This document shows, piece by piece, positions 3,895 to 61,973 of a stretch of DNA of 64,000 nucleotides. Position 1 is the first letter of the stretch. Each line of letters begins with the position of its first letter. The notes under the pieces are model-generated. The model ran no database searches. It saw nothing but the letters and a program-made list of their open reading frames with translations, and had not been told where the DNA came from. The position numbers and the translations under genes are program-made. Source of the DNA: Candidatus Microgenomates bacterium (GTDB lineage: Bacteria; Patescibacteriota; Microgenomatia; JACQLA01); contig JACQLA010000003.1 of assembly GCA_016204255.1 (NCBI GenBank), forward strand, positions 184,088 through 248,087, in the 5' to 3' direction.

Positions 3895-6426
3895 ATGAGC
3901 GATATTGGAAAAATACAAGCTGCTGAAATCACACAAGAAATGCAACGGTCCTATTTGGACTATGCAATGTCCGTTATTGTTTCTCGGGCCTTACCGGACG
4001 TTCGTGACGGTTTAAAACCCGTCCATCGCCGCATCCTTTATGCCATGCATCAGATGGGGCTTTCACACGCAGCAAAATACACCAAATCGGCTAAAATTGT
4101 CGGTGAGGTTTTAGGTAAGTATCATCCGCATGGCGATATGCCGGTTTATGATGCTTTAGTCCGGCTGGCTCAGGATTTTTCGATGCGCTACGCCTTAGTC
4201 GATGGACAGGGGAACTATGGATCGGTCGACGGCGATCCGCCGGCCGCCATGCGTTACACGGAAGCCCGCCTGACCGCGATTGCCCAGGAAATGCTTCTGG
4301 ATCTGGAAAAAGAAACCGTCGATTTTGTTCCCAATTTTGATTCAACTCTTAAAGAACCTGTCTTTTTGCCGGCCAAACTTCCGAATTTACTGCTTATGGG
4401 TTCGGAAGGTATCGCGGTTGGTATGGCCACCAAAATCCCTCCGCACAATTTAGGTGAGGTGATTGACGCCATTACCTTTATGATTGGGAAAGCCAACAAA
4501 AAAGCGGAAAACAAAATGGCGGATAAGACAGATCAACAAGCAAAAGAGAACAATGAAATTTCGGCTCAGTCATCCCTTAATTTTGATGTCTCGGTTGAAG
4601 ATCTGATGCAGTTTATAAAAGGCCCCGACTTTCCCACGGGAGCGGCAATTTATGACATCTCGGAAATTACCGCCGCCTACGCGACCGGTAAAGGAAAAAT
4701 TATTATGCGGGCCAAGGCCGAAATCGAGGATATCGGTCAGGGAAAATCAGCTATTATCGTTACGGAGTTACCCTATCAAGTCAATAAGGCTCAGCTTGTC
4801 GCCAAAATTGCAGAACTTGCCAAAGATAAAAAAGTTGAGGGTATTTCGGATTTAAGAGACGAATCAGACCGCCACGGAATCCGGGTGGTGGTTGAGTTAA
4901 AACGCGATACCCGACCGCGCACTGTTTTACAAAATCTTTTTAAACACACCGCAATGCAAACAACCTTTCCTGTCAACCTCGTGGCTTTGGTCGAAGGCAC
5001 GCCTCAAACTTTAACCTTGAAAATGGTTCTGGAAAAATATATCGATCACCGCCGCCAGGTGATTGTCAGGCGATCAGAATTTGAGCTAAAAGAGGCAAAA
5101 GCAAGGCTTCACATTCTTGAGGGATTAAAAATTGCGGTCGATCATATTGATGAGGTTATCGAAACTATTAAAAAATCCAAAGACGCCGATGAGGCCAAGG
5201 GAAAACTTATGGAGCGTTTTGGTTTGAGTGTTATTCAAGCCACGGCCATCCTAGATATGCAGCTTCGCCGCCTTGCGGCACTTGAAAGACAAAAAATTGA
5301 AGACGAGTATGAAATGGTCAAAGAGACCATCGCTTATCTTGAAGATTTATTGGCTCATCCGGAGAAAATTTTAGACTTAATAAAAAGCGAGCTTTTGAAA
5401 GTTAGGGAAAAGTATGTAGACGAGAGGAAAACTCGAGTTTATAAATCCAAACCAGGAGAATTTTCTGAAGAAGATTTAATCCCCAAAGAGAATGTGGTAA
5501 TCACTCTTAGTCAATCGGGATATATTAAGCGACAGTCCTTAAATACGTTTAATATCCAACAGCGGGGTGGCAAGGGGGTTATGGGAATGAAAACTAAAGA
5601 AGGGGATGAGATTGATCATATCCTTTCGGCGTCAACCCATGACAATATTTTGTTCTTTACTAATAAAGGTAAAGTCTATCAAATGCGGGTTTGGGACGTC
5701 CCAGAAGGAACAAGAATCTCTAAAGGACAGGCTATTGTTAATATTATAAACATCGAGCAGGGCGAAATGGTTAGCTCCATCTTAACTTATCCCTCAGACA
5801 CAAAAGGGGAGGGGAAATACATTTTTCTGACTACAGAAAAAGGAACGGTTAAGAAAACTGAACTTTCAGAATATACTAATATTCGTAGAACTGGACTTAT
5901 AACGATTAAGCTCGATAAAGATGATGAGCTTTGCTGGACGAAATTAACCTCCGGTAAAGACGACGTAATTCTGGTCACCCACGACGGTAAATCAATTAGA
6001 TTTAATGAGAACCAGGTACGACCGACTAAAAGAGATACGATGGGGGTACGCGGGATTCTCTGTGGTAAAGACGATTATGTAATCGGGATGGACATTGTTA
6101 AATCTGAAAAAGACGAACTTTTGGTTATTATGGAAAAGGGGTTAGGTAAAAAAACTACCCTTTCCGAATTTCCAAAACAAAGCAGAGGAGGCAAAGGCGT
6201 TAAAGCCTGTGAAACCACCCAAAGAACCGGTAAAGTTATCACCTCCCATATTATTGAACCCAATTGTGACTCCATTATTTTAACATCTGTTAACGGTCAG
6301 GTCGTTAAAATGCCCATAAGTTCTGTTCCCAAACTTTCCCGCGCTACCCAAGGCGTGATCCTGATGCGTTTTTCCGATCCGAAGGATTCATTGGCCGCGG
6401 CGACTTGCCTTACAAAAGAAAAGTAG
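3895..6426 (+). CDS. gyrA: DNA gyrase subunit A
   Basis: N-terminal [29 protein letters not shown] (catalytic Tyr region) and a C-terminal beta-pinwheel with repeated GxGKG motifs. 843 aa, with a short Lys/Asn-rich insertion near residue 200. Confidence 0.92.
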
Positions 6427-6564
6427 ATTGCGTCAACCCCATAGAAATTTGCTTCCCGCACGTTAAAATGAGAAAATAGATTTGTAAATTTAATTTAAAC
6501 AAGTCTGACAAGGACAGACCCTGTACAGGGACGGATCTTGCAGATCTCATAGATACTTACGGTT

Positions 6565-7437
6565 ATGAAATTTGATGGTCGTGCTTTAGCTCAGAGAATT
6601 TTTCACAAATTGAGCGGAAAAATTAAGAATCTTGAAATTAAGCCACACTTGGTAGTAATTTTAGTGGGGGAGAACCCTGTCTGGGAGGCTTATGTCCGGC
6701 AAAAAAAGAAAAGAGGCGAAGAGATTGGAGCCAAAGTAACCATTGATCAGCAGAAAGAATTTATAACAACCCCAGAGTTAATTAAAGTTATCGAAAAACA
6801 CAACAACGATAGGGGAGTCCACGGAATTATTATTCAGCGCCCATTGCCGCCGCAAATTGACGGACAAGCCATTGCTCTGGCTGTTGCGCCCGCAAAAGAT
6901 GTCGATGGGTTTCATCCAGACTCGCCACACCCGATGCCAGTGGCTGATGCAGTCATGAAAATTCTTAAAGAAATCCAAGGTAATAATCAAGAATTTAATA
7001 AGTGGCTAAATTCTAAAAACATTGTCGTTATCGGCAAAGGGGAAACCGCGGGTGGACCGATTATTTCGGCTTTAGAAAAATTAGGAAACACACCAAAAGT
7101 AATAGACAGTCAAACTAAAAATCCCGAACTTTTGACCAAAAATGCCGATATTTTAATCAGCTGTGTGGGTAAAGAATCTGTTGTTACCCAAGAGATGCTT
7201 AAAAAAGGCCTGCCTGCCAATAGGCAGGGAGCTATTCTCATCGGTGTCGGCCTTCACAAAGATAACCAAGGAAAACTTGCCGGCGATTATGATGAAAATG
7301 AGATAAAAGATATCGCTGCCTTTTATACGCCTGTCCCCGGGGGTGTTGGCCCCGTTAATGTGGCCTGCCTTCTTGAAAATCTTGTCGGTGCCTGCCTCGC
7401 CGAGTCAAGGCGGGCCTGCCTCAAACAACAAAAATAA
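6565..7437 (+). CDS. folD: Bifunctional methylene-THF dehydrogenase / methenyl-THF cyclohydrolase
   Basis: FolD N-terminus (KFDGRALAQRI..., VVILVGENPVWEAYVRQKKK) and C-terminal TPVPGGVGPVNVACLLENL motif. 290 aa. Confidence 0.85.
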   Translation: MKFDGRALAQRIFHKLSGKIKNLEIKPHLVVILVGENPVWEAYVRQKKKRGEEIGAKVTIDQQKEFITTPELIKVIEKHNNDRGVHGIIIQRPLPPQIDGQAIALAVAPAKDVDGFHPDSPHPMPVADAVMKILKEIQGNNQEFNKWLNSKNIVVIGKGETAGGPIISALEKLGNTPKVIDSQTKNPELLTKNADILISCVGKESVVTQEMLKKGLPANRQGAILIGVGLHKDNQGKLAGDYDENEIKDIAAFYTPVPGGVGPVNVACLLENLVGACLAESRRACLKQQK

Positions 7438-7454
7438 CCTATATTTCGGGTTTT

Positions 7455-7560
7455 CATTTTGGGGAGCCCGCATAGACCGCGGGCGACTCCAGAATCTGAT
7501 TCTGGACAAGCTCGCCTCGCTAAAGCCTCGACGGAGCGGGCCAGAATGACAAGGGTACGA
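7455..7560 (+). other. GC-rich structured island in the folD to LuxR-like intergenic region. Hairpins gagcccgc..gcgggc and ccagaat-ctg-attctgg, with short direct repeats ccagaat / gacaag.
   Basis: Local GC is far above the flanking sequence. Several perfect short stems are present. Only spurious overlapping ORFs cover it in three frames. Confidence 0.4.
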
Positions 7561-15455: not shown

Positions 15456-16637
15456 CTAAGTAATAATTTTGGGGAGCTGATTTGTTTTTATTGCCTCTTT
15501 GATTTCCATGGCGACGCGTTCGCCCATACTAACCGGTCTTCCATATAAATAGGAGCTATAGGGAGTGGCCGCGATTCCTGGGGAGCCCGGCATGCGCAGG
15601 GCCACGTCAAAAACCGCGATTTCTTTTTTGGGTGGACCGGGCAAGATAACCGCTTGCAAGCCAAAAGGGCCGATAATTCCCGGCCCAAACATCTCTTTTG
15701 TCGCCTCGACAAACCGTTCTCCCATCTCGTAAGCCATCTCTAAAAATGATTCCAAAACAGTCACAGCAATGTGACCCGCCTCCTCATAGGTCGGGCGGAT
15801 TTTGGCTAAAATTTGCGCCTGTTGTGTCTGAGGTAAACGCAAGAGTCCGTCTAAATTTGTTTGTCTTCTTGTGTCAGTTCCCAAAAGCTCTAAGCGGCCG
15901 AGAGTAGGGGAGTAGAAAAAGTTGAAATTGACCTGGGCACCAAGTAGAAATTCTTCAATAATTACATTTTTTAGCCCGCTTTCGGTAATTTTTCCGATTT
16001 TAATTAATTTTTCTGATTCGGTTAAAAATTCTTTATAGGAATTTGCCAGAAAAAAGGCCCGCTCAAATGATCGTTCTTTTTCATTAACGCTGACTTTAAC
16101 AATTACCATCCGATCAATATCTTTGGGATTTTTGAAAATCTTCGGATACTTAATCCCGCCTTTTTCCAAAAGATCATACTGGTTGGGTTTTACCGATCTT
16201 TCTTCGGCCCGAAACAAAAAGCGGTTGCCAAAGACAGGGATTTTAAATTTTTTTTCAATTCCGTCATAATCCCCGAGATAAACTTCAAAGGAGCGGTGGG
16301 GGATAAAGATGCAGTTTTTGGCCCGCAGTTTTTTTTGAACATCCGCAGTTAATAAATCTTTTATTTTTTCAACATAAAAAATTTCATCCACGCAACCGAC
16401 CGAAGGTCGTCCTGAGCTTGCCTGCGGTGAGGACATTCGGCTGAGCTCAGTCGAAGCCCTTGTCGAATCTGCCGAAGGACCTCTTTTAAAATATTGATCA
16501 TAAACTTTTCCCCGGCCTTTTTCCGCGATCACCAGCGTCTTAAACCCCATTTTTTTGGCGCCAAAACAAACTTCCAAGGCACTGTGCCGGGCAAAAACAG
16601 CAATAATGGGATTTTTATAATCTTTAACTGAGGTCAT
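15456..16637 (-). CDS. Archaeal-type FAICAR synthetase (formate-dependent, ATP-grasp) PurP, paralogue B with a low-complexity insertion
   Basis: PurP N-terminus (IAVFARHSALEVCFGAKKMGF) and conserved blocks (PHRSFEVYLG, NRFLFRAEER, GPFGLQ, MSMGERVAMEIK). A roughly 40-aa Ser/Pro-rich insertion lies near residue 55. Confidence 0.75.
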   Translation of the reverse strand: MTSVKDYKNPIIAVFARHSALEVCFGAKKMGFKTLVIAEKGRGKVYDQYFKRGPSADSTRASTELSRMSSPQASSGRPSVGCVDEIFYVEKIKDLLTADVQKKLRAKNCIFIPHRSFEVYLGDYDGIEKKFKIPVFGNRFLFRAEERSVKPNQYDLLEKGGIKYPKIFKNPKDIDRMVIVKVSVNEKERSFERAFFLANSYKEFLTESEKLIKIGKITESGLKNVIIEEFLLGAQVNFNFFYSPTLGRLELLGTDTRRQTNLDGLLRLPQTQQAQILAKIRPTYEEAGHIAVTVLESFLEMAYEMGERFVEATKEMFGPGIIGPFGLQAVILPGPPKKEIAVFDVALRMPGSPGIAATPYSSYLYGRPVSMGERVAMEIKEAIKTNQLPKIIT

Positions 16638-16810
16638 TTTATCTTAAGTATTTCCTTGTCATTTCGAGCACATTCGTTACACTCAGCGTAAACTCCGCGA
16701 GAAATCTAGCGAACCCCGATTTTATCGGGGGAAGCGTAAAATGCGATACTTCTTGCCTAGATTTCTCACCCCCGATTTAATCGGGGGATTCGAAATGACA
16801 TTCAGCGTTA
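16638..16810. repeat. Nested imperfect palindrome of about 170 nt containing two copies of a 19-nt hairpin (cccccgatt(a/t)aaatcggggg), between the two purP genes
   Basis: Outer arms tgtcatttcga/tcgaaatgaca and inner arms gagaaatctag/ctagatttctc are reverse complements. One arm carries a 31-nt asymmetric insertion. Confidence 0.6.
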
Positions 16811-17815
16811 TTAATCCAAAACCAGATTTAATTTATTTTGGCCAATCGCGTTTTTTATCTCCCGGGCAATTCTTCGGCCGGTTGACATCGGCTCATCATA
16901 TAAAAATTGCGTGTAAGGCGATCCTTCGATAAAAAGATTAGTCCCCGCAACGATCCGACAGGAAATTTCAATTACAAAAAACTTTTGATCGGGAGTGATG
17001 ATCGTTTCCAAACAAAATGGGCCAAAGAGTCCTTTTTTCGGTATAATCTTTTGGGATGTTTTAACAACTTTCTCACCCATGGCAAAAGCTTCCGGTAAAA
17101 GCGATTCGCGCAGGGTCAAGGGACTGTTCCCCACAACAACGTATGATGGTTGAATGCCAAGACCTTCCTGGTTTTGGGAAGGGATACGGCCTAAGGAATC
17201 AACATTGGTTTCATACCGACGGTCAATGCTTAAAATTTCAAGTTTTCCAGTTAAGGGCGAGTAAAAGTAATGAATAAAAAGTGGTACCCCGATAATATAT
17301 TCCTGGATAACATAATCCCGAACGGTGAAATGGATAATTTTTTCGGCAAATTCCTTTTTATTGCGGGCAAAAAAGTAACCCCGGCCGCCGGCTGCGCCAT
17401 TGGATTTGACCATTACCGGTGCGTTAATTTGAGCAGGTAGATCAAATTGTCGCGGGATGTTTATACCCGCCTGCATTAACCAATCTCTTTGCCTTTTTCG
17501 ATCAGCTTCCCAATCTAAAACATCTTTGTTACCAAAATAAGAGGTTTTCATCTTTTTATTTTCATCCAAACCTAAATAAGCCACAAAAGAACCATGAGGA
17601 ATAATAATTACTCTTTTTTCCAGAAGTTTTTTTTCGATTTTGAAAAAATCTACATATTTTTTGATCGTTATCAATTCATCAATAAAGGGAAAGTTTTTAT
17701 AAAAAGATGAAAATTCCGGCGTGGTGATGGCAATTGTCGCAAAGCCCTCATCTTTGGCCCCCTTAAGAATTTGCAGACAGGAATGTGAGGCCAGGGTCGC
17801 AATTGTGTATTTCAT
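16811..17815 (-). CDS. purP: Archaeal-type FAICAR synthetase PurP, paralogue A
   Basis: 334 aa. Collinear with archaeal PurP throughout (TLASHSCLQILKGAKDEGF, IIPHGSFVAYLG, GGRGYF, FIHYFYSPL, GPFCLE, STGRRIAREIK). Confidence 0.8.
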   Translation of the reverse strand: MKYTIATLASHSCLQILKGAKDEGFATIAITTPEFSSFYKNFPFIDELITIKKYVDFFKIEKKLLEKRVIIIPHGSFVAYLGLDENKKMKTSYFGNKDVLDWEADRKRQRDWLMQAGINIPRQFDLPAQINAPVMVKSNGAAGGRGYFFARNKKEFAEKIIHFTVRDYVIQEYIIGVPLFIHYFYSPLTGKLEILSIDRRYETNVDSLGRIPSQNQEGLGIQPSYVVVGNSPLTLRESLLPEAFAMGEKVVKTSQKIIPKKGLFGPFCLETIITPDQKFFVIEISCRIVAGTNLFIEGSPYTQFLYDEPMSTGRRIAREIKNAIGQNKLNLVLD

Positions 17816-22818: not shown

Positions 22819-23247
22819 ATGTATCCAAAAGAGTGCGCAGGTTGTCTTTTCCTTAGTAAAATTTTCAGATATGATGGCAACCCGCCCGAGGACGTCATCC
22901 TGAGTCTATCCCCAGAGGATCGCCGAGCATTCTTAAAAGATCTACGCGATGAAAACTCTTGGCGAGAGCTTGACTGTTGTGAAGCCATCCCACATCCTTT
23001 ACCACCACCTGAAATTGACCTAGCAGGAAAATCTGGAGAGATATTGTTTCCCCAAGCTTGCCCCAACGAAGGTCCAATTACCATTTTGCCAGTAAATAAT
23101 GCCGAATTGATGGATCTTGTTGATCATTTAAATGCGGCTCCGGCACGACAAAAAGGAAAAATAAGGATTGTGTTTGGAGTGAACGAGAAAACAGACAATG
23201 GCAATAGGCCCAGTGTTGAAGTTAAGGAAACCGTAGAAGTTTCCTAA
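22819..23247 (+). CDS. Hypothetical protein (Cys-containing)
   Basis: 142-aa ORF with no recognisable family. Confidence 0.3.
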   Translation: MYPKECAGCLFLSKIFRYDGNPPEDVILSLSPEDRRAFLKDLRDENSWRELDCCEAIPHPLPPPEIDLAGKSGEILFPQACPNEGPITILPVNNAELMDLVDHLNAAPARQKGKIRIVFGVNEKTDNGNRPSVEVKETVEVS

Positions 23248-36909: not shown

Positions 36910-37261
36910 TATCTTTCACCCCCCATCTTTTTCTGGATTATTTTTTTAATTTTAAACTAAAACATAACAATTATACAAGCCCTCAGAATCAAAAGGGAAA
37001 ATAGAAAATAATGCCATTGTCAGTTTGCAAAAAAAGTTAAAACTTTTTTTAGCCTCAAATCTGCAAAATTTGCAAACTCCCGAGGCTAGAAATGTTTACC
37101 ATTTCGTGCAAACTGACAGACCAGATTCTAACCAATCTAGAGTTGACTTCCTCCGACTAATCAGCCTTCTTGCTATTAGGTGGCACTTTATCGTTTCTCG
37201 ACAACATTTTTTAAAAGCAGATTTTAACCGCAAGTCTATTAATATCGATATCACTTGTCAA

Positions 37262-41061: not shown

Positions 41062-41787
41062 ATGATTTATTTTAATTTATTACTATTTTCTTTTCTTTTA
41101 ATATTCTCCCCACTGGCCGTCAACGCGCAGGAAAACCAAACTACCGCAACACCCACGCCCACCCCGCAGGCGGCTGTGAAATCAAGCCAAGATCTTATAC
41201 AGGAAAAGGTTCAAGATCTTAAAGAAAGAGTGGCAACTAAAGTCGCCCAAATCAGACAACTCCAATCTCCTAAAGCCATCGTTGGAGAAATCCGGTCAAA
41301 CAAAAGTGGCAATCTAACTCTTGCGACAAAAGCCGGCGACCGAACAGTTTTTGTTTTTGATGAAACAAAAATTTATCAAATTGAAGCCGGCCGAAAAAAA
41401 ACACTGTCCGTTTCTAACTTAAAAGAGGGTCAGCGGGCTTCTATTGTGGGTATTGGAGATGCTCAAGGTGAATTCCTTGCCAAAACTGTTTTTGTAAAAA
41501 CCCCGCCACCAAATATCGTCGGCACAGTGGAAAAGAAAGATGAGCAAAAAAACACTCTAACCGTTAAAAACGGTAAAGAAACCGTAACATATCTTATTGA
41601 GATTGAAAACAAAACGAAAACTGCTAGATGGGCCCAAGGCACGGGGGCGGTAAAATCCGGCTTTTCTGATATAAAAGTCGGTGATATCGTTCATGTCAAT
41701 GGCCCGCTTCTGGATGATGCGGCAAATCATGTTAGTGCCAATCGCATTTTTATTCTTGCCCTAAAGACACCCCAGCCGACTCAATGA
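41062..41787 (+). CDS. Secreted hypothetical protein with signal peptide and two tandem beta-domain repeats
   Basis: Signal peptide ...SPLAVNA/QEN, a TPTPTPQ linker, and an internal duplication (TVFVFDE..IVGIG and TVTYLIE..IVHVNG). Confidence 0.4.
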   Translation: MIYFNLLLFSFLLIFSPLAVNAQENQTTATPTPTPQAAVKSSQDLIQEKVQDLKERVATKVAQIRQLQSPKAIVGEIRSNKSGNLTLATKAGDRTVFVFDETKIYQIEAGRKKTLSVSNLKEGQRASIVGIGDAQGEFLAKTVFVKTPPPNIVGTVEKKDEQKNTLTVKNGKETVTYLIEIENKTKTARWAQGTGAVKSGFSDIKVGDIVHVNGPLLDDAANHVSANRIFILALKTPQPTQ

Positions 41788-42902
41788 CCCGTTTGAAAAA
41801 AATTCAACAAACACTCGGCGCTAAGAAAATCGGCGCCCTTTTAGTTAGCGATTTTTATAATCTTGCCTATCTTTCTCAATTTTTTCCTCTTTCTCCCCAG
41901 GAAAGAGAAGCCTTCCTGCTCATCACTCCTCATCGGGGTTTTTTACTAACTGACGGCCGCTACATTGAACAAGCCCGAATTTTAAAAAATGATTTTAATT
42001 GTCTGGAAATAACCCCCCGACAAAATCTTGTCCAGATTATAGCCAATCTTGTTCGGGAAGAAAAAGTTAAATGCCTGGGTTTTGAGAAAACAAATCTGAC
42101 TTTCGGAGAATATGAAAAACTAAAAGCCGAAGTGGGGATAAAACTTATTCCAACATATAATATTGTCGAGGAATCCCGGGCGATAAAGGATCCCAAGGAA
42201 ATTACTTCAATAAAACGCGCGTGCCAGATTGCCGATTTGGCTTTTGCCCATCTTTTGAAATTTTTAAAACCAGGTCTGACCGAAAAAGAGATAGCAGATG
42301 AAATCGAATGGTTTATCAGAAAGAAAGGTGTGGTGGATTTATCTTTTGACCCGATCGTTGCCTCCGGCCCTAATTCGGCTTATCCTCATCACCGCTCCGG
42401 CGACAGAAAAATTAAAAAACAGGATATCGTTTTACTGGATTTTGGAGCGAAGGCGGAAAATTATTGCTCAGATATGACGCGGGTGGTTTTTTTGGGAAAA
42501 GCAACCGAAGAGCAAAAGAAGGTTTATAACGTTGTTTTAGAAGCACAGAAAAAAGCGATTGAATTTCTTAAGCATTATTGTCATTCTAAACGAAGCGAAG
42601 AATCTGGAAACTATGGAATAAAGCCTTCGGAAGTTGATAAAGCTTCTCGAGACTATATCACCTCCCAAGGTTATCCCGCCATCCCCCATGGACTAGGTCA
42701 CGGGGTGGGACTTTGCGAACATGAATCCCCTCGCCTTTCTTTTAAAAGCAAGGATACATTAAAACCGGGGATGGTTTTTTCTATTGAACCGGGAATTTAT
42801 TTGCAAAACCAATTTGGGGTGCGAATCGAAGATTTAGTGGTTCTGACCGAAACCGGCCCTCAGGTTTCAACCAAATCTTCTAAAGAAATTATTGAGTTGT
42901 AA
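41784..42902 (+). CDS. M24-family Xaa-Pro aminopeptidase
   Basis: The HGLGHGVGLCEHESP metal-binding block with an N-terminal creatinase-like domain. ATGA overlap with the upstream gene. Confidence 0.8.
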   Translation: MTRLKKIQQTLGAKKIGALLVSDFYNLAYLSQFFPLSPQEREAFLLITPHRGFLLTDGRYIEQARILKNDFNCLEITPRQNLVQIIANLVREEKVKCLGFEKTNLTFGEYEKLKAEVGIKLIPTYNIVEESRAIKDPKEITSIKRACQIADLAFAHLLKFLKPGLTEKEIADEIEWFIRKKGVVDLSFDPIVASGPNSAYPHHRSGDRKIKKQDIVLLDFGAKAENYCSDMTRVVFLGKATEEQKKVYNVVLEAQKKAIEFLKHYCHSKRSEESGNYGIKPSEVDKASRDYITSQGYPAIPHGLGHGVGLCEHESPRLSFKSKDTLKPGMVFSIEPGIYLQNQFGVRIEDLVVLTETGPQVSTKSSKEIIEL

Positions 42903-60827: not shown

Positions 60828-61973
60828 TCATGTTCCAATCAAGAATTCAACCACATCCCCGTCTTTCATTTCATAATCCCGGCCTTCGGAGCGCAACCAA
60901 CCTTTTTGCTTAGCCAAAGCAAAAGACCCTGTCTCGATTATTTTTCCATATTCAATCACCTGTGCCCGGATGAACTTTTTCTCAAAATCGGTGTGAATCA
61001 CTCCGGCCGCTTGCGGCGCCAAAGTTCCCTTTTTGATTGTCCAAGCCCGCACCTCTTTTTTACCCGCCGTAAGATAGGAAATCAGACCCAATAAATTGTA
61101 GGCTTTAACGATTAACCGTTCCAAACCGGTTTTCTCTCCGCCAGCTGGCGGACCTAATGATTTTAGATACTCCGATCTTTCCTCATCCGAATAATCCGCC
61201 AGCTCCTCTTCCAACTTCGCGCAAATGGCAACAACGTTGTCATCCTGAGCGAGCGAAGCGAGTCGAAGGATCTCCTCAGCATATTCCTTTTCACCAACAT
61301 TAAAAACATAAAGAATAGGCTTGATACTCAATAGCGGTAAATGTTCAAACCAGTCTTTTAATCGTTCGTCTCGAAGACTCTGAGTAGAATCGAAGGGCTC
61401 GACTTTAAATTTTCCCAAACTTCCGCCGCTATCCAAAGTTTTTTTCAACTCATTTAAAACATCTACTTTTTTAAATTCCAGCGGATCTTTACTGGTTTTG
61501 GCATTTTTTTTCTGACCCGCAATCATTTTTTCCAGAGTCTGCAAATCCGCCAAACCCAATTCTGTTTCAATTGTTTCCCTATCGGCTTTTGGATTCTCAC
61601 TGCCCTCGCGGATCACATTCGGGTCTTCAAAATCGCGCAAAACATGGACAATTGCGTCAACCTCACGGATGTGAGACAAAAACTGATTACCTAAACCCGC
61701 TCCTTTATGTGCCCCTTTAACCAAACCGGCAATATCGACAAACTCAACAACCGCCGGCACAAGCGGCGGTAAACTCTCCATCTTTTCTTCATTTTTAACC
61801 AAACCGGCTAGTTTGTTTAGCCGCTCATCCGGCACGGCGACCACGCCAACATTTGGCTCAACGGTCGCAAAAGGATAATTGGCCGAAAGAGCCACACGCT
61901 TTTTCAAAAGCGCATTAAACAGGGTCGATTTCCCCACATTGGGAAGACCGATAATTCCAACTGATAAACTCAT
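60828..61973 (-). CDS. ychF: Ribosome-binding ATPase YchF (canonical)
   Basis: [38 protein letters not shown], and the TGS domain ..GDVVEFL. 381 aa. Confidence 0.9.

Follow-up and report, generated by a model that had tools for sequence, protein, structure and literature searches.

REPs of E. coli stabilise the mRNA upstream of them, and where a stop codon is no more than about 15 nt away they can reduce how well the gene before them is translated. Di Nocera, De Gregorio & Rocco (2013, BMC Genomics 14:522, PMC3733652) sorted REPs into a GTAG-tagged and a CGTC-tagged superfamily. In their account of the CGTC superfamily, the tag is often TGTC, with CCTC as a further variant, and the stem of 8-9 bp starts with A-T and then T-A, is continuous with at most one mismatch, carries a loop of 4-5 nt and leaves a short unpaired tail of 3 nt, which is mostly CCA. 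The dimers described there are mainly HH, with spacers of 20-100 bp, some of which contain small stem-loops. The hosts that the survey names for CGTC REPs are Proteobacteria, Chlorobi, Bacteroidetes, Spirochaetes and Thermotogae, and Neisseria dRS3 as well as Rickettsia RPE-4 and RPE-6 are counted as members of the superfamily. According to the same account, in-frame intragenic copies exist and a dedicated transposase is not known.

Here we describe a structured element in the spacer between two purP genes in a 64-kb stretch of DNA from a Microgenomates bacterium, which we call the window. We conclude that this element is very probably an HH composite built from a dispersed palindromic repeat of REP type, and not a leader that senses purines. 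Its structure is real and significant and of an essentially known kind, and the residual interest lies in the hairpin family to which it belongs, not in a purP-specific role.

Structure of the intergenic element

The first-pass annotation of the window had described a palindromic element of 170 nt, with nested arms, two GC-clamped hairpins and an insertion of 31 nt in one arm. The arms, both hairpins and the insertion (16668-16698) are all present where it had placed them, and the palindromic character stands. Its extent had been overestimated, as positions 16638-16810 are the entire purP1-purP2 spacer and the palindrome proper covers only 144 nt. The features are:

16657-16800, no strand: palindrome proper (144 nt), an HH dimer (tags outside) of two TGTC-tagged hairpin units with a spacer
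16657-16667 and 16790-16800: outer arms TGTCATTTCGA and TCGAAATGACA, 11 nt, 100% complementary
16699-16709 and 16757-16767: inner arms GAGAAATCTAG and CTAGATTTCTC, 11 nt, 100% complementary
16657-16708, plus strand: unit 1, following the definition of the unit by regular expression (regex) and covariance model
Parts of unit 1: tag TGTC (16657-60), ATTTC (16661-65) pairing with GAAAT (16701-05), tail CTA (16706-08)
Interior of unit 1: GA (16666-67) opposite GA (16699-700), and a 31-nt 'loop' (16668-98), GCACATTCGTTACACTCAGCGTAAACTCCGC
16758-16800, minus strand: unit 2, matched by covariance model R1 at 16758-16796 on the minus strand
Parts of unit 2: tag TGTC (16800-16797), ATTTC (16796-92) pairing with GAAAT (16765-61), tail CTA (16760-58)
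Interior of unit 2: GA (16791-90) opposite GA (16767-66), and an upper stem-loop (16789-16768) that includes hairpin A
16769-16787: hairpin A, CCCCCGATTTAATCGGGGG, the extended upper stem of unit 2
16714-16730: hairpin B, CCCCGATTTTATCGGGG, within the dimer spacer
16733-16768, plus strand: conserved spacer segment, AGCGTAAAATGCGATACTTCTTGCCTAGATTTCTCA, also present in dimers of other environmental genomes

The two units are inverted relative to each other, with the TGTC tags outside and a 55-nt gap between them. Each unit is itself an imperfect palindrome, and the dimer therefore necessarily holds four mutually complementary segments (ATTTCGA, GAGAAAT, ATTTCTC and TCGAAAT), which are the source of the 'outer' and 'inner' arms. 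Both units have atypically long 'loops', 31 and 22 nt compared with the usual 7-8. The 31-nt segment runs from the left outer to the left inner arm; its right-hand counterpart (16768-16789, 22 nt) is itself hairpin A. A second copy of the full 144-nt composite was not found within the window.

The twin hairpins share the form CCCCGAT-loop-ATCGGGG, a pattern that occurs twice in the 64-kb window compared with 0.00 expected in shuffles. Hairpin B and its 3' flank match hairpin A and its flank with 85% identity over 26 nt at an offset of 56 nt, and hairpin B is missing from the same spacer in the related dimers L137 and L157; it is thus probably a local partial duplicate of hairpin A.

The element folds at -61.7 kcal/mol on the minus strand (z -4.2) and at -62.4 kcal/mol on the plus strand (z -5.8), and for neither strand did any of 200 shuffles fold as well. 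With RNA energies, the whole element reaches -60.0/-60.7 kcal/mol compared with -38.1/-40.4 for its parts folded separately, which makes nesting about 20 kcal/mol more favourable than separate folding of the units.

Hammerhead and other small ribozymes, integron attC sites, bridge and omega RNAs and retron ncRNA were rejected as identities of the element on its anatomy, as their core motifs or partner genes are absent.

Flanking genes and orthologous loci

The element had been placed between two purP genes, and this is confirmed for both flanking ORFs by matches to DUF1246 and DUF1297 with E-values of 1e-36 to 1e-68. The PurP family is named FAICAR synthetase in the sources.

16811-17815, minus strand: purP1, the upstream gene, 334 aa, Pfam DUF1246 and DUF1297
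15456-16637, minus strand: purP2, the downstream gene, 393 aa, Pfam DUF1246 and DUF1297 and homologues

The element starts 10 nt past the purP1 stop codon (16811-16813). The purP2 ATG (16637) lies 19 nt downstream of the element, outside the structure, and the start codon is not sequestered. In four relatives (L127-L130), whose PurP2 proteins are 65-73% identical, the gene order is purP1-(purH)-purA-purP2, and the start of purP2 overlaps purA or directly follows it, with neither spacer nor leader. Covariation among the purP leaders of relatives had been proposed as a check on a leader function, and these four orthologous loci have no leader. In the window purA is not found between the purP genes, nor anywhere else in the 64 kb and the fetched flank of about 10 kb, and the repeat dimer occupies the junction where the relatives have purA. 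No empty-site allele was seen for the purP1-purP2 locus; the sequences of L002 and L003 match that of the window exactly.

An Rfam scan, which had likewise been proposed, gave no match at the element, either at the gathering threshold on the window or at E<=10 on positions 16350-16850. Weak Rfam matches to snoRNA, U5 and fstAT are chance matches. Among 18 repeat loci scanned at the gathering threshold there was no Rfam match to the hairpin family. The promoter and terminator scan found no terminator-like site near the element and no promoter on the gene strand (minus); the sole promoter-like match lies on the other strand (plus).

A leader that responds to purines, a riboswitch or an attenuator of purP2, would let the four segments switch between nested and side-by-side pairing and so control read-through or translation. 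The position directly upstream of purP2 on its coding strand would suit such a leader, as would the highly significant structure and the order a/a'/a/a', which permits alternative folds (-60 kcal/mol nested, about -40 side by side). Alternative pairings of this kind are, however, automatic in any HH dimer of the repeat, and neither a U-tract terminator nor a sequestered start region is present.

Distribution of the hairpin family

The pattern TGTCATTTCGA-N(5-35)-GAGAAATCT, scanned over one genome per species, matched at least 120 loci, and taken together the unit is present in more than 120 genomes from 15 or more phyla. The host lineages include Clostridia, Bacteroidota (among them cultured Mucilaginibacter, Flavobacterium and Chryseobacterium), Chloroflexota, Planctomycetota, Nitrospirota, Acidobacteriota, Verrucomicrobia, Omnitrophica, Spirochaetes, Proteobacteria, Myxococcota, Actinomycetota and one Uhrbacteria genome of the CPR. 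A spacing of 7-8 nt is the commonest, with 77 of the 180 matches listed (52 with 7 nt and 25 with 8 nt), so the basic unit is a hairpin of 27-28 nt. Its consensus is TGTC-A(T/Y)YYY-GA-NN-NNN-NN-GA-RRR(A)T-CTN, and the canonical unit consists of 5 bp, tandem G·A/A·G, 2 bp and a 3-nt loop. By both sequence and structure the two units of the purP spacer belong to this family.

The lower stem occurs in the variants TTTC, TTCC, TCTC, TCCT, TTCT and others, each opposite a 3' half that pairs with it, and 29 of the 38 matches without TTTC are complementary, compared with a chance rate of 1 in 256. For the upper pair the searches set no condition; it is GC in 31, AU in 21 and CG in 14 of 71 distinct units and unpaired in the remaining five. 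Judged from these comparisons the hairpin structure is under selection, because the stem pairs covary, including the upper pair. All 71 units of alignment A3 have AU at pair 5-25, and 70 of them have UA at pair 6-24. The opposed GA dinucleotides (tandem G·A/A·G) are invariant in A3 by construction, as GA was demanded by the regular expression.

GTCA is preceded by T in 235 of the strict-regex units of the fetched loci, by C in 14, by G in three and by A in two. The tail CTN in the fetched loci is CTT in 89, CTC in 76, CTA in 38 and CTG in 30 cases; the window has CTA. No conservation was found in the DNA that flanks the units. Neighbouring units in the fetched loci are arranged as HH in 59 cases, TT in 13 and HT in 13, and the HH gaps have a median of 30 nt and a range of 5-141 nt.

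The unusual parts of the window element recur as well. The CCCGAT..ATCGGG hairpin is absent from the first 130 loci except for copies of the window locus, and it was found in metagenomes. In metagenomes, the pattern TCGA..CCCCGAT-NNN-ATCGGGG..GAGA by itself matched 46 times, and 26 of these matches (19 of 35 distinct ones) have GTCATT/AATC flanks, for which the pattern did not ask. An inverted partner lies at most 160 nt away from 15 of these 19 distinct flanked units. On this sequence evidence the CCCCGAT..ATCGGGG upper stem is a recurrent subtype of the unit. Dimers in the metagenome contigs L137, L144, L164 and L166 share the spacer segment 16733-16768, with 92% identity over 36 nt. The metagenome contig L171 pairs both subtypes of the window, the long loop (CACATTCG..TCAGYGTAAACTCCG) and the CCCCGAT hairpin, in a dimer that stands on a compensated lower stem (ATTGC/GCAAT) between HIT and NUDIX genes. 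Thus both unusual loops and the spacer of the window element recur in metagenome dimers beside unrelated genes. A PurP-encoding locus is found in none of the 168 repeat-bearing loci (1.12 Mb). Dispersed identical copies had been named as evidence against a purP regulator; many dispersed copies do exist, and they are related to one another without being identical.

The family was also found on viral contigs. A scan of viral contigs that demanded the outer arms alone gave copies on three contigs, which carry the undemanded inner arm GAGAAATCT and an unrelated interior. One of these copies, in L006, is a minimal perfect hairpin. The CCCCGAT hairpin together with an outer arm had no match in the viral scan.

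Further units in the same genome

The analysis covered the 64-kb window and about 10 kb of flank, and the window was scanned with covariance model R1 and the strict regular expression. The strict expression has six matches in the window compared with 0.27 expected, and we count about 5-7 units in the 64 kb, one of which is an in-frame insert. Besides the purP spacer, the units and the insert in purP2 are:

42579-42606, plus strand: canonical 28-nt unit, TGTCATTCTAAACGAAGCGAAGAATCTG, R1 score 27.6 bits, inside the gene of an M24 Xaa-Pro peptidase
61238-61274, plus strand: unit in ychF, TGTCATCCTGAGCGAGCGAAGCGAGTCGAAGGATCTC, antisense within the gene, R1 score 31.6 bits
16400-16490, minus strand: GC-rich insert in purP2, in frame, about 25-30 aa, including GPSADSTRASTELSRMSSPQASSG
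16406-16437, plus strand: degenerate unit in the purP2 insert, GTCGTCCTGA..GAGGAC
22893-22923 and 7499-7550: weaker unit candidates from R1 or the regular expression

The unit in the M24 peptidase gene is translated in frame and accounts for a 13-aa insert (HYCHSKRSEESGN) compared with the solved homologues 3q6d and 2zsg of the PDB. For the ychF unit there is no clear net insertion compared with solved YchF structures. The purP2 insert also holds the palindrome TTCGGCTGAGCTCAGTCGAA. It is missing in 7 of 13 aligned homologues, and the other six have different inserts at that site. Some of the alternative PurP inserts bear peptide signatures that are typical of such repeats (PELAEG and SEERSDVESL).

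Two independent assemblies of the organism end inside the purP2 insert, at its palindrome. Both k-mer assemblies cross the intergenic element unbroken, which means that the organism does not carry the composite as identical copies in high number.

Search for a mobilising protein

We clustered 1929 ORFs from the 168 loci all-against-all. The largest clusters across loci cover at most seven loci and consist of housekeeping proteins (ABC-F, sigma-54 regulators, TrxB), and neither a candidate mobilising protein nor a recurrent transposase was found near the copies in the 168 loci. A tblastn search with a single IS200 TnpA query, validated as Pfam Y1_Tnp and of limited sensitivity, found no Y1 transposase in the window with its flank (L001) or in the 168 loci (1.12 Mb). 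No insertion sequence (IS) related to the element was found, and no target-site duplication is visible at its flanks (TCCT and TTCA). A literature search with GTCATTTCGA and related strings gave only primers.

Origin and possible roles

The reading that we prefer treats the element as non-autonomous repeat DNA. By analogy with REPs and REPINs and their HUH transposases, and with the chemistry of IS200/IS605, such a repeat would spread in trans in the form of a hairpin whose conserved tag stays unpaired. It would be tolerated between genes and, in frame, within genes, and the dimer would fill the junction left where purA is missing. Mobility is suggested by the dispersal of the units and by the comparison of sequences with and without inserts. 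We regard the unit family as a probable variant of the CGTC/TGTC-tagged REP kind, and not as a proven member of CGTC-1 to CGTC-4.

A repeat origin would not prevent the element from acting in the mRNA. Both purP genes are on the same strand with no terminator-like site or gene-strand promoter between them, so co-transcription is plausible, indeed probable, and would place a very stable stem-loop between the two cistrons. This stem-loop could protect the 3' end of purP1, serve as a processing site, or lower or uncouple the translation of purP2 and so set the ratio of the two paralogues. The relatives couple purP2 to the preceding gene by overlap and this coupling is broken here, so the stem-loop might also stand in for it. 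The effects of E. coli REPs on the stability of upstream mRNA and on upstream translation near a stop codon point in the same direction. The 2013 survey (PMC3733652) describes REPs as favouring sites less than 20 bp downstream of an ORF and proposes that they act as RNA. On the other hand, the repeat occurs in all kinds of contexts, even inside genes, which argues for tolerance and not for a selected function, and the element is not conserved in the relatives. We consider co-option as an intercistronic RNA element rather unlikely; it would supplement the repeat explanation and not replace it. As a side effect the element may still influence the regulation of purP2, and whatever it does to the mRNA would be of this kind and not purine-specific control.

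A miniature inverted-repeat element had been suggested by the first-pass annotation as a second possibility. The dispersed palindromic repeat that this implies is borne out, and the classical MITE is not. As an internally deleted DNA transposon, the element would have its 11-nt outer arms as terminal inverted repeats (TIRs) for a DDE transposase encoded elsewhere. The arms are indeed perfect inverted repeats at the ends of a 144-nt sequence, and other copies with the same termini have variable interiors. The supposed TIRs are, however, halves of units that are also found singly as 27-28-nt hairpins, unlike what TIR transposons leave behind, and the covariation of the stems points to selection on a hairpin and not on a duplex protein-binding site. 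Given arms that are unit halves, and the lack of a visible target-site duplication and of a related IS, a dimer of REP-type units fits better; a recurrent transposase near the 168 copies is lacking too. A classical MITE is improbable.

Least credible is the attenuator or riboswitch-like purP leader of the first-pass annotation, which is already largely refuted by the lack of an Rfam match even at E<=10, of a terminator and of a gene-strand promoter, by relatives that have purA immediately before purP2 and no leader, by the recurrence of identical modules (both unusual loops and the spacer) beside unrelated genes and by the absence of PurP from all 168 repeat loci.

Beyond the locus, the REP-type repeat may be part of a larger system, which we put forward only tentatively. 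One hairpin family (TGTC-AT..GA/GA..AT-CT) would exist bacteria-wide, in at least 15 phyla including the CPR, and would possibly be phage-borne. It would be kept near-identical by a widely distributed putative trans-acting enzyme that recognises the tag and the G·A-interrupted stem and that is neither IS200-like nor encoded next to the copies. In this Microgenomates lineage the family would still be active and insert in frame in surface loops, such as the PurP hotspot and the M24 peptidase, and the dimer would mark the purA deletion. We rate this extended proposal as doubtful.

If the element is the repeat that we take it to be, the spacer between the purP genes consists of repeat DNA at an operon junction that has been rearranged, and there is one candidate riboswitch or attenuator fewer. 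A REP-like hairpin family reaches CPR genomes and many other phyla with its sequence almost unchanged, and it appears to be tolerated in frame inside housekeeping enzymes. For annotation this means that such repeats yield spurious small ORFs and apparent protein inserts, and for assembly that contigs break at such palindromes. The family also bears on the question of what propagates REPs of the CGTC type.

Comparison with known repeat systems

The window element resembles the REPIN-RAYT system in that two inverted REP hairpins and a spacer form one larger hairpin, which is non-coding and dispersed, and in the unpaired tag by the foot of the hairpin, which suggests recognition as single-stranded DNA. 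REPINs have the tag GTAG and a single-copy Y1/HUH transposase, whose RAYT gene is typically flanked by REPs, whereas the window tag is TGTC and the single-query tblastn search, with its limited sensitivity, found no Y1 transposase in the window, the flank or the 168 loci. Moreover, REPIN families are lineage-specific and vertically inherited, whereas the window unit is near-identical across phyla.

Like the Rickettsia palindromic elements, the family has units within the reading frames of conserved genes, in this genome the M24 peptidase gene and purP2. The window dimer itself is intergenic, unlike the Rickettsia elements, and elements of the RPE-1 type, which are confined to Rickettsia, have a greater length of 100-150 nt.

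The position of the dimer is comparable to that of the E. coli BIMEs or intercistronic REPs, for example at malE-malF, where a cluster of inverted REPs lies between co-directional genes of an operon, just past the upstream stop codon. The window repeat comes from a different family, and the effects on mRNA are known for E. coli.

The closest match is with the CGTC REPs, as the survey of Di Nocera et al. describes them. In place of the continuous 8-9-bp stem given there, the stem of the window family is broken by tandem G·A/A·G; the loop usually has 3 nt and not 4-5 nt and is often replaced by long extensions, which in the window are the 31-nt segment and a 9-bp GC hairpin; and the tail is CTN and not CCA. 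The host range extends over 15 or more phyla, including Microgenomates and Uhrbacteria of the CPR, compared with the five phyla that the survey names. Shared with the CGTC REPs of that description are the unpaired TGTC tag, the A-T/T-A start of the stem and the short tail after it, as well as the mostly HH arrangement with a fitting spacer length, an in-frame copy and the lack of an adjacent transposase in the loci searched.

Repeat units within coding sequences

Repeat units were also found within three protein-coding genes of the window:

16400-16490, minus strand (purP2): GC-rich in-frame insert of ~25-30 aa, made up of degenerate units of the same kind of repeat
Equivalent of ~16438-16455, inside the purP2 insert: palindrome TTCGGCTGAGCTCAGTCGAA, at the ends of L002 and L003
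42579-42606: canonical 28-nt unit within the M24 Xaa-Pro peptidase gene (41784-42902)
61238-61274: unit TGTCATCCTGAGCGAGCGAAGCGAGTCGAAGGATCTC, antisense within ychF, encoding a 13-residue stretch

Because other Microgenomates homologues of purP2 either have no insert or carry different ones at exactly the same site, this position, within an N-terminal-domain loop, is an insertion hotspot. L002 and L003, which are Logan assemblies of this organism made independently of each other, both stop at the palindrome within the insert. Both cross the 144-nt intergenic element between the two purP genes, which points to a sequence in the insert that, at k-mer scale, is repeated or palindromic.

The unit in the peptidase gene is translated into a 13-aa insert, HYCHSKRSEESGN, which is missing from the PDB homologues 3q6d and 2zsg. 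For the ychF unit, alignment to solved YchF structures showed no clear net insertion, and it may have arisen either by replacement or in situ. Another example of translated repeat DNA within a housekeeping enzyme is a thioredoxin-reductase-like ORF on a metagenome contig (L133, ~5400-6480), which has an in-frame insert (..GEKSLPRRQAGQRDPSSVSQRTRDDKQRG..) where a repeat dimer sits.

Purine operon in relatives

In the purine loci of four relatives (L127-L130), purA, sometimes together with purH, sits between the two purP genes and either overlaps or directly precedes purP2, whereas purA is missing between the purP genes of the window (15456-17815). With tblastn, no purA match was found anywhere in the window or in its flanking DNA (L001). 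The purine operon of the closest relative, L127, contains a canonical unit at 4501-4532, inside a purE/purC fusion gene (32.5 bits with R1, our covariance model of the repeat unit).

Further palindromes in the window

The FolD gene (6565-7437) has a GC-rich extension at its end (..GACLAESRRACLKQQK). Two further palindromes are intergenic:

7370-7560, end of the FolD gene and the spacer after it: palindromic element in the spacer, ending ..CCAGAATGACA
37018-37118: separate palindrome with outer arms TGTCAGTTTGCA / TGCAAACTGACA around three small hairpins

Read on the minus strand, the post-FolD element gives TGTCATTCTGG...CCAGAATC; this hairpin has the tag but lacks the GA pair. The palindrome at 37018-37118 folds with -38 kcal/mol on the plus strand and -48 kcal/mol on the minus strand; it has the TGTCA...TGACA termini in common with the repeat, but its interior is different.

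Repeat in other genomes and on viral contigs

At 4026-4168, the IMG/VR contig L006 carries a minimal perfect 31-bp hairpin form of the element, followed by repeated copies of GGTCGAAATGACAGAGAAGAAACT, a unit of roughly 24 nt, and L004, likewise classed as viral, has two dimers of the repeat 6 kb apart. Phages or phage-like DNA may thus carry the repeat.

In Flavobacterium hydrocarbonoxydans (L064), a tags-outside (HH) dimer of the repeat (2009-2108) lies immediately upstream of an RNA listed in Rfam:

L064, 2142-2219: Flavo-1 RNA (RF01705), 80 bits
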